Assembly (NCBI GenBank): GCA_900321185.1
Contig: ONVD01000024.1
Span: forward strand, 1 to 60,482
From: an uncultured Eubacteriales bacterium
GTDB lineage: Bacteria > Bacillota > Clostridia > Christensenellales > UBA1242
Length of the DNA: 60,482 nucleotides
Reading direction: 5' to 3'
Shown one piece after another: positions 12,537 to 57,706 of the stretch (the stretch's first letter is position 1; every line of letters starts with the position of its first letter). The position numbers and the translations under genes were made by a program. The notes beneath the pieces were generated by a model. It was not told where the DNA came from. It saw only the letters and a list, made by a program, of their open reading frames with translations, and ran no database searches.

Positions 12537-12599
12537 AAAAGTGCATAGTACCCTATTTTTAGGGAGCAAAAGTGCATAGTACTGATACTATGCACTTTT
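12537..12599. repeat. GTACTATGCA-family repeat, locus A (two direct copies of AAAAGTGCATAGTAC; the second forms a 14-bp-stem hairpin)
   Basis: AAAAGTGCATAGTACCCTATTTTTAGGGAGCAAAAGTGCATAGTACTGATACTATGCACTTTT. Lies between the divergent spoIIID and rpoB promoters. Confidence 0.85.
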
Positions 12600-12670
12600 A
12601 ATAAATTTAGTTTTATAACTTTTGATAGTAGAGTAAATTATATTTTCTACAAAAACTTTTAATTTTTTTA

Positions 12671-12699
12671 TTGACATCATTTGTGTGGTATGGTATAAT
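12671..12699 (+). promoter_or_regulatory. strong sigma-A promoter for rpoBC (extended -10)
   Basis: TTGACA (12671-12676), 17 nt spacer, TGgTATAAT (12691-12699). About 245-nt leader to the rpoB ATG. Confidence 0.65.
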
Positions 12700-12944
12700 A
12701 TCGAGACTATGTGGTTTAATGTAGAGTCTTTTTGGGTGGAGCAGATGCAATTTTTTGTAAACAATACTAACTTAATATCTTAAAAATTTAATGCTATGCG
12801 TAATGAGCATATTTTTTGCTTTTACCTAGCATTTTACTTTTTATTATCCAAAAGTTACAAAACTCTAATTATATTATCTATTTCATGCTTACAACCAAAC
12901 GCGCTAATTAAACATATTAGAATACGATTTTTAAGGAGAACACA

Positions 12945-15900
12945 ATGCCTGCAAACTCAGAAGTATCTAAAATTCCTGTAAAAAAGATTAAGTGCGGAAG
13001 GACTGAACGTATCAGTTTTTCGAGAGCAGAAGAGCCTGTTGAAATTCCGTACCTTATCAATATTCAAAAAGAAACTTACAAACAATTTTTGGAAAAGGGT
13101 ATAGGTGATGTTATATCCGAATTTTCGCCTATCGAAGATTTTAGCGGCAAGGCGGAGCTGTATTTTGGTGACTACCACATTGATTATGATGCGGTAAAGT
13201 ATCCCTTGGCGGAATGTCGTCGTAGAGGGCTTACTTATTCTGCGCCAATAAAAGTTAATGCTAGACTGGTCAACAAGGAGACGGGTGAGGTCGTCGAACA
13301 AGAAGTTTTACTTGGTGATGTGCCATTAATGACTGAGCAAGGTTCATTCTTGGTTAGTGGTATTGACCGTGTGGTTGTTAGCCAGATTGTTCGTAGCCCA
13401 AGTGTTTACTTTGAAAAAGATGTAGACAAAAACACTGGTAAAACTACATACAAAAACACTTTGATACCTATTAAAGGTAGTTGGTTGTCATTTGAGCAGA
13501 CTCAAAAAGACACTATTAAGGTTACTATTGACCGCAGTGTCAAGGTGTCAGCTGGCTTGTTGTTAAAATCACTTGGTTTTAGTGAACAACAACTAATAGA
13601 GCTTTTTGGTAACAACGAGTATATTATTGCAACCCTCAACGATGAGCCACAAAAGACAGAAGAAGATGCTTTGCTAGAGCTTTCCAAAAAACTTCGTCCA
13701 AGTGAGTTGCCAAACGCAGAGCAGATTAAAAACTATATCTCCAACATGTTTTTTACAAAGATACGCTATGATTTACAGCGTGTAGGTCGTTACAAGTTTA
13801 ACAAAAAGTTGTGCCTCGCAAATCGTTTGCCAGGTTTAAAACTTGCTCGTCCTATTACACTGAGTGATGGTACTGTACTAGACAAAGGTACTATGTTGGA
13901 CAAGGATTCGGCTCGTGCTATTCAAAATAGTTGTATTAACGGTGTTTGGGTATTGCTACCAAATGGTAAAGAACACTACATGTTAGGTAATAATCGTATT
14001 GACCTAGATGCTGTTGTCAAATGCAATCCTAAAGAGTTGGGTGTACTTGAGATGGTGCATTATCCAACTTTGGTCGAGGTACTAAAAGGCGCTAAGACAA
14101 AAGATGCAAAAATACAAGCAATAAAAGACAATGCCGAAAACTTGATTACTCGTTGCTTGACTGTAGATGATATTTTGGCTTCGGTCAGTTACTTATTGGA
14201 TTTGATTGACGGTATTGGTAAACTAGATGTTATTGACCATTTGGCAAACCGTCGTATTAGTAGTGTGGGCGAACTTATGAGTTTTGCTCTGCATGCTGGT
14301 ATGGTCAAACTTGCACAATTGGCTCGTGAGAGTATGCAAGGTCAAGATTTGACTCAAGCTAGTCCAAGCACTATTATTAATGCTCGCAATGTAAACAAAG
14401 CCTTGATGGACTTTATGAAAACGAGTCCTTTGTCACAAAACATGGACGAAGTTAATCCACTTTCGGAGATTACGCAAAAACGTCGTACCAGTGCAGTTGG
14501 ACCTAGAGGTGTCCGCAAAGAGCGTGCGGGTAACGAGGTTCGTGATATCCACTATACGCATTATGGTAGATTGTGTGCAGTTGAAACCCCAGACGGACAA
14601 TCCGTAGGTCTTATCAACTCTATGGCACTTTATTCTAGAGTAAATGAATATGGGTTTTTGGAGACACCTTATCGCAAGGTAGATCCAGTAACACACCAAG
14701 TAACAGACCAGATTGAATACATGATGGCGGACGAGGATGAGAACTACAAGATAGCTCAGGCTCTAGAGCCATTAAATGATGACAAGACCTTTGCGAACAG
14801 CACAGTTATTTGCCGTTACAAGGACAGATTTATAAGTGTTAATAGTAACTTGGTGGATTATGTAGATGTTAGTCCAAAGCAGATTATTGCAGTAACGCCA
14901 TCATTGATGCCATTTTTGGGTAACGATGACTCGGCTCGTGCAATTTTGGCGTGCAACCAGCAACGTCAAGCAGTACCTCTTATCCAGCCCGAAGCACCTA
15001 TTATTGGTACAGGTATGGAGTACAAGGTGGCTCATGATAGTGGTACATTGGTGCTAGCTAAGGCAGACGGTGTTGTAAGTTATGTAGATGCAACTAAGAT
15101 ACAAGTTACACGTCCAGACAACACTGTAGATACTTATAATCTAATCACTTTCTCAAAGACAACAAAAGAGACTTGTCTTAACCAAAAACCAGTTGTTAAG
15201 TTTGGCGATAAAGTTAAACAAGGTGATGTTTTGGCAGACGGGTTATCTACCTCAAATGGTGAGTTGGCGCTCGGTCGTAACGTAACTGTTGCGTTCATGA
15301 ACTGGGAAGGTTACAACTACGAAGACGCTATCTTGATTAACGAGCGTTTAGTTCGTGATGATGTGTTTACTTCGATAAAACTAAAAGTAGAAGAGGCTAA
15401 GTGTCGTTCTACAAAATTGGGTAATGAGGAAATTACTCGTGATATTCCAAACTTGTCCGAAGACGCTCTTAAAAACTTGGACGAAAACGGAATTGTTCGA
15501 GTTGGTGCCGAAGTTCGTCCTGGGGATATTTTGGTCGGAAAGATTACTCCAAAAGGAGAGACTGAGCTTACCCCAGAAGAAAGATTGTTACGTGCAATCT
15601 TTGGTGAAAAAGCTAGGGAAGTGCGCGACACTAGTTTGCGTGTTCAACATGGACATGGCGGTGTAGTTGTGGACGTTCAAGTATTCAGCCGTGAGAATAA
15701 AGACGAAATGGAGACTGGTGTCAACAAAGTTGTCGAAGTTTACATTGCTCAAAAACGTAAATTGTCAATCGGTGACAAAATGTCAGGTCGTCACGGTAAC
15801 AAAGGTATTGTATCAAAGATACTGCCAGTAGCAGATATGCCATATATGGCAGACGGAACGCCAGTAGACATTTTGCTTAGTCCTCTAGGTGTACCTAGCC

Positions 15901-55964: not shown

Positions 55965-57040
55965 ACTATATCAATTTCACCACCACCAAGGCAATTTTCG
56001 TCACCGTCATACAAGACAACAAATTGTCCAGGGGTTACGCTTGTTTGTTTGTTTAAAAAAGTAATTTGTACATTTTGGTCTATAATGTTTACATGCACGG
56101 GTTGATCAGGTTGACGATATCTAAACTTTGCAAAACAATCAAAACTTGTGCTTTTTGGTTTTTGTGGAATGAAATTAAATCCTAAAGTTGTTAGTTGTGT
56201 TTGGATTGGCATTTTGTCTTCACCTTGTGTGACATACAAAGTATTTGTAGTTAAGTCTTTTTTTACGACAAACCAAGCTTGGCCATTGCTCTCTTTTTGC
56301 CCTCCTATCCCCAAACCTTTTCGTTGACCAATAGTGTAATACATCAATCCGTTGTGTTTGCCAATAGTTTTACCGTTGAGAGTCTTGATTTCACCTTCTT
56401 TAGCGGGTAAGTATTGGGATAAAAAACGTCTAAAATTCCTTTCGCCAATAAAGCAAATGCCCGTGCTGTCTTTTTTGGTAGCTGTGACCAAACCCGCTTG
56501 TTTAGCAATCTCTCTGACCTTTGGCTTTACAATATCGCACAAAGGGAAGATAACATATTTAAGTTGGTCTTGGGTTAGTTGATTCAAAAAGTAACTTTGG
56601 TCCTTGTTTTTATCAAATGCTTTTTTCAGATAAAACGAACCCTCTTTTTTAACAACCTTTGCATAATGTCCCGTGGCGATATTATCAGCTCCGAGTGACA
56701 ATGCCTTGTGGATAAAAGGTCCAAATTTTATTTCTCGGTTACACAAAACATCTGGGTTAGGTGTCCGACCTTGCTTGTAACTATCCAAAAAGTATTCAAA
56801 TACTTTTTCGTAGTATTCTTTAGAAAAATTAACACTGTAGTATGGAATATCTATCTTGTCACATACTCGTCGCACATCGTCGTAGTCTTGTTGTGCTGTG
56901 CAAACTTGATTTTGGTCTTTTTCTTCCCAGTTTTGCATAAACAAACCAACTACGTTGTAGCCTTGTCGTTTGAGTAGTAAAGCACTGACAGATGAGTCCA
57001 CGCCACCTGACATTCCAACCACGACAGTTTTTTGTTGCAT
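55958..57040 (-). CDS. mnmA: tRNA 2-thiouridine(34) synthase
   Basis: [17 protein letters not shown]-loop, TGHYA, DQSYFL, and catalytic Cys residues in NPDVLCN and TGICFIGE. Confidence 0.95.
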
Positions 57041-57052
57041 ACTTTGCTCCTT

Positions 57053-57532
57053 TTATTCTTTTTGTCCCAATACTACAGGTACTCGATATCTTTTGGATGC
57101 TAGCAAAATGATATCATATATCCAACGAATCAACACGACAACACCGCCAATAGAAGCAATCGTGCCAAACACGCTAAACAATCCTGAGTCTACATTAAGT
57201 GAAATATATTTGCCCCAAACTAATCCAAGGATAGTAGAGTAAATGAGTGTGAGTGTCCAAAACACACTCATTAATATTGCTGATATGTATTGTTTGGTAT
57301 AATACCTATGTGCTCCAAAAAGACCTAAAAAAATGCAAAGCAACAAAGTCTTTTTGTAACTTAGGTCAGTAGGAAAAATACTAGAATACACAACTAACTC
57401 TGGTTGATATTCTTTTTTTGCTTTTGTGACAGCTTTGTTAGACGCTGTTCTTAATTGACTGATTTGTGTACCACAGTGTATACATACATTAGCATTTTTT
57501 GGAAACTTTGCTCCACAATTTGGACATCTCAC
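57053..57532 (-). CDS. zinc-ribbon + TM2-domain membrane protein
   Basis: GTG start 8 nt after GAGG. MRCPNCG...CIHCG zinc ribbon. TM2 signature LLCIFLGLFGAHRYY. Confidence 0.7.
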   Translation of the reverse strand: MRCPNCGAKFPKNANVCIHCGTQISQLRTASNKAVTKAKKEYQPELVVYSSIFPTDLSYKKTLLLCIFLGLFGAHRYYTKQYISAILMSVFWTLTLIYSTILGLVWGKYISLNVDSGLFSVFGTIASIGGVVVLIRWIYDIILLASKRYRVPVVLGQKE

Positions 57533-57670
57533 TATAATTACCTCTTTTTATAATTATATTATAACGTGTTACATTTTTCAAGTGATTTGTTAAAGTTTGT
57601 TTTATTTGGTAAATGTTTGAGTACAAAAAATAAAAAGTTGTACAAAACTCTAATTTGTACAACTTAATTT

Positions 57671-57706
57671 AGTATTATGCTACTGTTTTTGCATAGTACT
57701 ATGCAC
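57671..57706. repeat. GTACTATGCA-family repeat, locus E (degenerate copy + full palindrome)
   Basis: AGTATTATGCTACTGTTTTTGCATAGTACTATGCAC aligns with locus C over ~36 nt. The palindrome overlaps the last codons and stop of the SBP gene. Confidence 0.85.

Follow-up and report, generated by a model that had tools for sequence, protein, structure and literature searches.

The PadR family of winged-helix repressors includes cdPadR1 of C. difficile, LltR of Listeria, PadR of B. subtilis and AphA of Vibrio. In electrophoretic mobility shift assays cdPadR1, a PadR-s2 subfamily protein of strain R20291, was bound to two boxes in its own promoter, GTACTATACATTATAGAGTA and GTACTATGTATTATTATAGTA, which contain GTACTAT(A/G)(C/T)AT (Isom et al. 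2016, PMC5050560). The operator of B. subtilis PadR consists of 6-bp palindromic repeats with a 6-bp spacer (PMC5728393). LltR autorepresses the lltR-DUF1700-DUF4097 operon in Listeria (PMC6624303), and a further report proposes HAAS-PadR dyads as envelope-stress signalling pairs (PMC11237479). Here these systems are compared with a short repeat built on the 10-mer GTACTATGCA in a 60,482-nucleotide stretch of DNA from an uncultured Eubacteriales bacterium (Christensenellales, UBA1242; assembly GCA_900321185.1, contig ONVD01000024.1), called the window below. On balance the copies are probably operators, or operator halves, of a PadR-family winged-helix repressor, either of the padR-HAAS-DUF4097 kind (LltR- or cdPadR1-like) or a membrane-anchored PadR paralogue. 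The 10-mer has a fixed place within padR promoters, its copies are clustered, and intact dispersed copies stand at orthologous positions in many species. We infer that the same PadR protein would occupy the dispersed copies and have a role there.

A sequence-only reading of the window had reported 13 exact copies of GTACTATGCA or its complement, and all were found again at the same starts, whereas dinucleotide-preserving shuffles of the window gave 0.15 on average and never more than 2. The copies form six clusters (A, B1, B2, C, D and E, Table 1) within five spacers, and every one is intergenic or touches a stop codon only, as had been claimed. An open reading frame (ORF) called at 12161-12595 on the minus strand seems to span locus A; it is over-extended and the SpoIIID-like gene there really starts at 12412. 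In all, 15 half-sites were counted in 60 kb (0.25 per kb), none of them coding. The 9/10 variants were also present (ATACTATGCAC at 12585/12586, GTACTATGCGT at 55893/55894), as were CTATGCGTA-type variants at 12793-12802, at 20436-20447 on the complement and at 55897, and loci C and E could be aligned across about 36 nt. The 18-bp perfect palindrome GTGCATAGTACTATGCAC, on which the family had been said to be built, has no exact occurrence in the window. Its closest matches carry one mismatch at 20412 and 57689 and two mismatches at 55886, and in locus A two palindrome arms lie 3 nt apart. The 16-mer TGCATAGTACTATGCA occurs exactly twice (20413 and 57690) and the palindrome of the other register, GTACTATGCATAGTAC, exactly once, in locus B1 (20407-20422), which there includes the exact 4-8-4 palindrome GTAC-TATGCATA-GTAC.

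A scan for the 16-mer in one genome per species gave at least 113 blocks of 8 kb, and all block figures given here are those among the matches listed. A PadR-family gene was present in 9 of the 113 blocks and in none of the remaining listed loci or the window. One block (L013) has a gene for a 104-residue PadR protein whose TTGACA-17-TATACT promoter is overlapped by several copies of the motif. Homologues of this protein form a large subfamily, 57-99% identical, across Clostridia and Bacilli, and sit in padR-HAAS-DUF4097 operons. All 7 distinct promoters sampled from these operons had the same arrangement: TTGACA, 4 nt, ATACTATG(C/T)(A/G), 3 nt and a TATAAT-like -10 hexamer. The motif in these promoters is held at a fixed place between the -35 and the -10 and differs from the 10-mer in that its first base is A instead of G; an ATAC-N8-GTAT dyad overlaps the -10. 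Two blocks (L036 and L066) come from the two metagenome-assembled genomes (MAGs) with the most matches listed, and each carries a gene for a long membrane-anchored PadR protein. The 16-mer lies just upstream of the promoter of this gene in L036; in L066 the promoter has a degenerate TACT-N11-AGTA copy and the exact 16-mer stands about 800 bp upstream. The exact 16-mer also heads a lipoprotein-padR-PspC operon in five Flavobacteriia-type (Bacteroidota) genomes and a padR operon in one Verrucomicrobiota genome. The autoregulatory placing of PadR operators, a site in padR's own promoter, is thus found in the sampled padR promoters. The dyad of such operators, about 16-20 bp with short arms and an AT-rich core, is found as GTAC-TATGCATA-GTAC and, in the padR promoters, as ATAC-N8-GTAT.

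The bound cdPadR1 boxes begin GTACTATACAT and GTACTATGTAT, one mismatch from the window 10-mer, and have TACT/AGTA arms flanking an AT-rich core in the regulator's own promoter (PMC5050560). The C. difficile genome has about 200 matches, about half of them convergent-intergenic or in ORFs and some near sporulation genes (PMC5050560). The two systems differ in that the cdPadR1 arms are arranged as TACT-N11/12-AGTA whereas the unit in the window is a 4-8-4 RTAC-N8-GTAY with a 12-bp period, and in that the C. difficile matches come from a loose motif scan whereas the copies described here are exact and conserved. cdPadR1 (PDB 5DYM) is only the fourth best solved relative of the motif-adjacent PadR. 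LltR (Lmo0599) and the HAAS-PadR dyads resemble the padR operons described here in the order padR, DUF1700/HAAS, DUF4097/Toastrack, in autorepression and in the proposed link to envelope stress (PMC6624303; PMC11237479). The AphA box of Vibrio, ATATGCA-N6-TGCATAT (PMC3440409), shares the TATGCA/TGCATA arm, with another arm spacing and orientation and in an unrelated host phylum. The sequence-only reading had offered three readings of the repeat, and among them the operator set of a dimeric regulator is the best supported, since the core is the padR-promoter operator and resembles the bound cdPadR1 boxes (PMC5050560). Its description of the family as undescribed was partly right: no account of the dispersed family turned up in the literature searched, where motif sequence strings matched unrelated primers only, but the core matches a known kind of operator.

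At least 76 of the blocks, in at least 40 assemblies, are from uncultured Clostridia, Christensenella or Borkfalkia MAGs. Local GC at these sites ranges from 23 to 63%, and up to 11 blocks came from single MAGs. Within 100 bp of a 16-mer there are 1.93 further exact half-sites per kb, compared with 0.021 per kb in the rest of the blocks, and about 40% of the 16-mers continue on one side into a complete RTAC-N8-GTAY operator. In many species the motif is accompanied, a few nt away, by a second box, AACTAT(T/G)CGCAAAA or variants of it, which is itself a degenerate half-site, giving recurring composite units of about 45 bp. Contigs with the same SpoIIR, L31 or YpeB proteins came from rumen and gut metagenomes, and a YpeB protein 83% identical to that of the window is labelled Christensenellales. 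Some 16-mers in other phyla adjoin TetR or MarR genes or form terminator loops, and these were treated as chance palindromes. Gut 'Bacilli/Tenericutes' MAGs (L024, L041, L050, L052, L059, L064, L076, L078, L080, L082, L084, L087, L116, L121 and also L122) carry the exact 16-mer once each. These copies share one conserved spacer, between a gene that by eye is signal-peptidase-like and a secreted-protein gene, neither of which was confirmed by Pfam; no PadR gene was found within the 8-kb blocks of these MAGs.

Several positions of the sites are kept between species. The motif stands between sipL and spoIIR in 7 species and after ypeB, at the position of locus D, in all 4 of the 4 close species compared. 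Other shared places are between tkt and veg (3 species; the copy in the window has decayed), between punA and a dacB/F-like carboxypeptidase gene (4 species), after mutS (3-4 species) and between rpmE and ligA (2 species). The motif also lies upstream of xerD-like genes in 3 species and upstream of spoIIIAC in 1 species. The XerD-like genes raised the possibility of tyrosine recombinase sites, which was rejected because their presence by three clusters reflects the conserved xerD-deoB-punA-dacF neighbourhood and is not specific. In the alignment of the seven sipL-spoIIR spacers the block T.CTATGCA is invariant, although the SipL proteins are only 37-53% identical to that of the window (three species measured), which indicates purifying selection. 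Locus E was found in the window's species only (1 of 4 compared), and none of these sites was present in a more distant relative whose YpeB is 41% identical. The conserved sites together with the absences in relatives point to selection or drive within one clade and not to a universal element. In a distant relative (L150, 7580-8600) the sipL-spoIIR spacer is 1 kb long, very AT-rich and full of tandem repeats, without the motif.

Loci A and B were compared within the species only, the L31-based matches all being of the same species. Contigs of the same species match the window at 98-100% identity over loci B, C, D and E (100% at locus B), and two of them reach the rpoB-proximal part of the locus A spacer without reaching the repeat cluster. 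Since these contigs are nearly identical they are uninformative on strain-level polymorphism. One contig of the window's species (L004, 7700-7747) departs from the window exactly at the start of locus E and ends 40 nt further on, the cause being a structural variant or else an assembly that broke at the repeat. Two close relatives differ in their sipL-spoIIR cluster by exactly one 12-bp unit. A conserved three-site cluster occupies a divergent spacer between two genes without a Pfam match in L127 (19250-19350), L128 (19300-19400) and L040 (7412-7507), and in the window's species it would fall just past the right end of the window.

Positions relative to genes were classed, using crude ORF calls, for 91 clusters among the matches listed. 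Co-directional genes flank 38 of these, convergent genes 14 and divergent genes 10, with 17 overlapping an ORF call and 12 at a contig edge. Where a gene 3' end adjoins a cluster, it is no more than 26 nt away in 31 of 72 cases, the cluster often lying upstream of a terminator. About 8-10% of the clusters lie within real genes, the hosts being a GH106-like enzyme, three U32 peptidases (in two of them the copies are at matching positions), GlmS and the linker of MutL. The five perfect copies within genes all share one reading frame, which encodes HSTM(H/Q). The GlmS unit lies within a stretch of 31 residues where E. coli GlmS has 7, an insertion of about 24 residues. In L129 a degenerate double site lies within the first spoIIR codons, in the CIVLC frame.

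The loci in the window are listed in Table 1, described from Pfam scans of the neighbouring ORFs, reading of the sequence and consensus scans.

Table 1. Motif loci in the window and the neighbouring features used to describe them.
Feature	Position	Strand	Remark
Locus A, single half-site GTACTATGCAC	12541..12551	-	about 105-165 bp upstream of sigmaE-like promoter of SpoIIID-like gene
Locus A, inverted pair AGTGCATAGTAC-tga-TACTATGCACT then TTTT	12571..12596	.	true hairpin
Weak variant GCTATGCGTA	12793..12802	+	rpoB leader region; family membership uncertain
SpoIIID-like 83-residue gene (context)	12161..12412	-	downstream of locus A
Locus B1 GGTACTATGCATAGTACTATGCAC	20406..20429	.	three overlapping half-sites, 12-bp period; directly past rpoC terminator
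Second box ACGCATAGTTAT of locus B1	20436..20447	-	degenerate extra half-site
Locus B2 AGGTACTATGCA-C-TGCATAGTACCT	20538..20562	.	T-runs on both sides; bidirectional terminator-like hairpin
Locus C, two direct half-sites 24 bp apart	53100..53135	+	begins 15 nt past sipL stop
Locus D1, half-site	55834..55844	-	ypeB stop (55832-55834) directly abuts motif
Locus D2, second box AGTATTCGTAAAAAA then GTGCATAGTACTATGCGTAGTTC	55871..55908	.	upstream of ypeB/mnmA terminator
Locus E, AGTATTATGCTACTGTTTT then TGCATAGTACTATGCAC	57671..57706	.	upstream of terminator 57635-57665
rpoC intrinsic terminator, ordinary (context, outside family)	20359..20385	.	
Intrinsic terminator, locus C to spoIIR (context)	53167..53193	+	
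Terminator hairpin, ypeB to mnmA (context)	55940..55956	-	
Terminator hairpin downstream of locus E (context)	57635..57665	.	

Locus A (12541-12596) occupies a divergent spacer with the SpoIIID-like gene on one side and rpoB on the other. The rpoB promoter is a perfect TTGACA-17-TATAAT (12671-12699) and the SpoIIID-like gene has the sigmaE-like promoter GTATATT-N14-CATATTTT. The SpoIIID-like protein, upstream of whose gene locus A lies, was considered as the binder of the motif and set aside: nothing further supports it, and the search for relatives yielded none beyond one on a phage-like contig. This nearest relative (L124, L125) is 44% identical, and the contig also carries RecA, ThyX, SpoVG and HU genes; the search gave 2 matches only because the word index limits short queries. 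Locus B2 is the sole terminator candidate for prfA, which ends at 20612 on the minus strand. Downstream of locus C stand a terminator and the conserved sigmaF-like promoter of spoIIR. Reading the motif itself as a sporulation sigma-factor promoter (GCATA as -35, CATAGTA as -10) was rejected, the spacings of 24, 31 and 52 bp being unfit and the orientation being away from spoIIR. An extended -10-like sequence, TGGTATAAT, stands at 55907-55915 directly past locus D, directed towards the terminator and antisense to mnmA; either it starts a very short transcript or the match is due to chance. At locus E the stop codon of an NMT1-like gene on the minus strand is the TAG of the motif itself (57699-57701).

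Further features of the window were seen in passing. Between an rplL-sized ORF (406-789) and rpoB there are five large ORFs (913-12003), which with the SpoIIID-like gene make an unusual insertion at the rplL-rpoB junction. Listeria-Bacteroides repeat (Flg_new) domains were found in the one of these ORFs that was scanned (11050-12003). A Spo0A gene lies at 25381-26217 and two adjacent HU-family genes at 31063-31335 and 31413-31730. The transfer-messenger RNA (tmRNA) gene at 41380-41771 encodes the tag peptide ANKNVSYASPRTAFAYAY; it scored 141.9 bits with Rfam and was called by ARAGORN as well. An NrdR-box-like palindrome, ACACTATATATAGTAT, is present at 45592-45607, at the 5' edge of the ORF call for nrdD (45571-47826; ATP-cone/NRDD).

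Several observations weigh against an operator set. No PadR gene was found in the window by tblastn or a small-ORF scan, and none could be tied to the window's species. Dispersed copies favour G at position 1 where Firmicute padR promoters carry A. The LltR regulon in Listeria is essentially its own operon (PMC6624303), whereas operator-like sites here are spread across many loci. Placement between convergent genes (14/91) and close to stop codons (31/72) is atypical of operators, and the whole in-frame units within genes look like the outcome of insertion or molecular drive and not of operator evolution. As stop-to-terminator, convergent-gene and in-frame placement are all atypical, the sites may instead owe their spread to insertion or drive, in the manner of a repetitive extragenic palindrome (REP) or an iterated palindrome, or may have a structural role. 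Insertion would be at work if the motif were a short mobile repeat like a REP or a miniature inverted-repeat transposable element (MITE), or were moved by some unknown mechanism, lying neutrally at gene ends and being homogenised by the mobilising enzyme, with the PadR operator merely resembled or captured. The REPs and bacterial interspersed mosaic elements (BIMEs) of Enterobacteria and Pseudomonas, which go with REP-associated tyrosine transposases (RAYTs), are likewise short, extragenic and multi-copy, often placed between stop codon and terminator, in clusters of alternating orientation with some hairpins. An extragenic location mainly at 3' ends, the composite units of about 45 bp with the second box, the whole in-frame units in GlmS (with its insertion of about 24 residues), MutL, the U32 peptidases and GH106, stop codons that the motif provides or abuts, the presence of locus E in 1 of 4 close species and the decayed tkt-veg copy would all suit such a repeat. 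However, no RAYT or other transposase bracketed by the motif was found in the 113 listed loci and the window, the one IS200-like Y1_Tnp gene (L027) among 136 flanking genes having the motif on one side only. This gene (3199-3711, minus strand) is 179 bp from the 16-mer in a Clostridia MAG of 57% GC. No longer repeat unit or terminal inverted repeats were found around the motif in the window, and the arrangement varies by locus, unlike that of a MITE (terminal inverted repeats bounding a unit of at least 50 bp, with target-site duplications). REPs and BIMEs are built of hairpin-forming units and are species- or genus-specific, whereas here only 2 of the 6 clusters fold, and one and the same sequence occurs in genomes of 23-63% GC and in different phyla and has stayed unchanged at orthologous sites despite deep divergence. 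A mobile repeat is thus unlikely, and the earlier suggestion of a REP/BIME mobilised by a RAYT found no support, the motif being common to many species and phyla, few clusters folding and the sole Y1 transposase gene among the 136 flanking genes being unbracketed.

The folding results bear also on the possibility that the motif acts as RNA, being recognised after transcription as a 3'-UTR element or a terminator module. Locus B2 folds better than shuffles (-20.4 and -18.5 kcal/mol, z -6.7 and -5.5) and so does the inverted pair of locus A (-17.4 kcal/mol, z -5.0), so both are strong hairpins, and many clusters lie between stop codon and terminator and would therefore be transcribed. Only B2 has the GC-containing hairpin and T-run at a gene 3' end of an intrinsic terminator, on both strands; the locus A pair is followed by TTTT but has no upstream gene on that strand. 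Against this, shuffles fold as well as B1, C, D and E do, complementarity of the flanks past the 16-mer is near background, an Rfam search of the window gave tmRNA as its sole match, and the motif has no constant orientation towards the gene before it, loci C and E being alike on the plus strand while following genes of opposite strands. An RNA element is the least probable of the explanations weighed here, and the absence of a general hairpin points to double-stranded DNA as the recognised form. Double-stranded DNA would also be recognised in a chromosome-organisation or centromere-like motif of the parS, ram or RefZ-binding motif (RefZ-RBM) type, bound by a protein and marking a domain such as the origin-proximal region captured in the forespore. 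A palindrome conserved regardless of GC, conserved positions that include sites within genes, window genes that are usually origin-proximal (rpoBC, spoIIR, veg), a monotonic GC skew and 6 clusters in the 60 kb of the window as against about 1 extra exact 10-mer site per 48 kb in the listed blocks of other genomes are what such a motif would give. Variable half-site clusters and a strong intergenic bias are atypical of parS, ram and Noc-binding (NBS) sites, and the PadR promoters explain the motif more simply, so that a centromere-like role seems improbable. The DNA uptake sequences (DUS) of Neisseria, the uptake signal sequences (USS) of Pasteurellaceae and the cyanobacterial highly iterated palindrome HIP1 offer a further comparison, in which molecular drive, through gene conversion, repair or biased uptake, would keep the motif without a regulator. 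These too have a clade-wide core of 10-12 nt, conserved orthologous positions, inverted pairs serving as terminators and copies within genes in tolerated frames. The repeat described here has a core conserved in an order-level clade, kept orthologous positions, a terminator-like inverted pair (B2), in-gene copies limited to one tolerated frame and variable loops, and mutS, mutL, ligA, dinB and comEC among its neighbours. DUS and USS occur at roughly 1 per kb. The density here is far lower, 0.25 per kb in the window with no coding copies and 0.02 per kb in the listed blocks of other genomes, the intergenic bias is stronger (over 80% of clusters), whereas many DUS and USS copies lie within genes, and tight multi-copy clusters are not a DUS or USS trait. 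To our knowledge sequence-specific DNA uptake has not been described in Firmicutes. Maintenance by drive alone is accordingly very improbable. A chromosome-organisation or uptake-type signal had been the third of the readings offered from sequence alone.

If the sites are operators of a PadR-family repressor, the functional unit would be the 4-8-4 palindrome RTAC-TATGCATA-GTAY, and the register of TGCATAGTACTATGCA would arise because 4-8-4 units overlap at the 12-bp period. Repressor sites would have multiplied in this Christensenellales lineage well past the repressor's own promoter, and dimers, singly or in arrays, would occupy gene boundaries, in many cases by sporulation genes: sipL/spoIIR, sleB-ypeB and the spoIIID-like gene in the window, dacB/F-like and spoIIIA genes in relatives. 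Bound dimers might modulate adjacent promoters or block read-through, a suggestion that is as yet weakly supported. Inverted pairs may double secondarily as hairpins, B2 being likely to serve as the prfA terminator. Arrays may grow through slippage of the 12-bp (4-codon) period, as suggested by the two close relatives that differ by one 12-bp unit.

A wider proposal, which must be regarded as doubtful, is that in one Christensenellales clade a HAAS-PadR-type envelope-stress repressor, normally local in its action, or a membrane-anchored paralogue would have hundreds of selection-maintained sites at gene boundaries and in frame within genes. Across the genome the repressor would serve as a boundary or insulator protein linked to sporulation loci, and its sites would have spread by insertion and by slippage with the 12-bp (4-codon) period, making them a Firmicute counterpart of highly iterated palindromes. 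If the reading of the repeat as PadR operators is right, a small repressor that elsewhere controls little beyond its own operon would have conserved genome-wide sites in an abundant, barely cultured gut order, and those sites would adjoin key sporulation genes. One protein and one 16-bp site would then provide a concrete handle on gene regulation or chromosome structure in the Christensenellales. The repeat would also be a case study of the multiplication of transcription-factor sites, copies read in frame within proteins included, and a caution that intergenic repeats which appear 'REP-like' can be operator sets.

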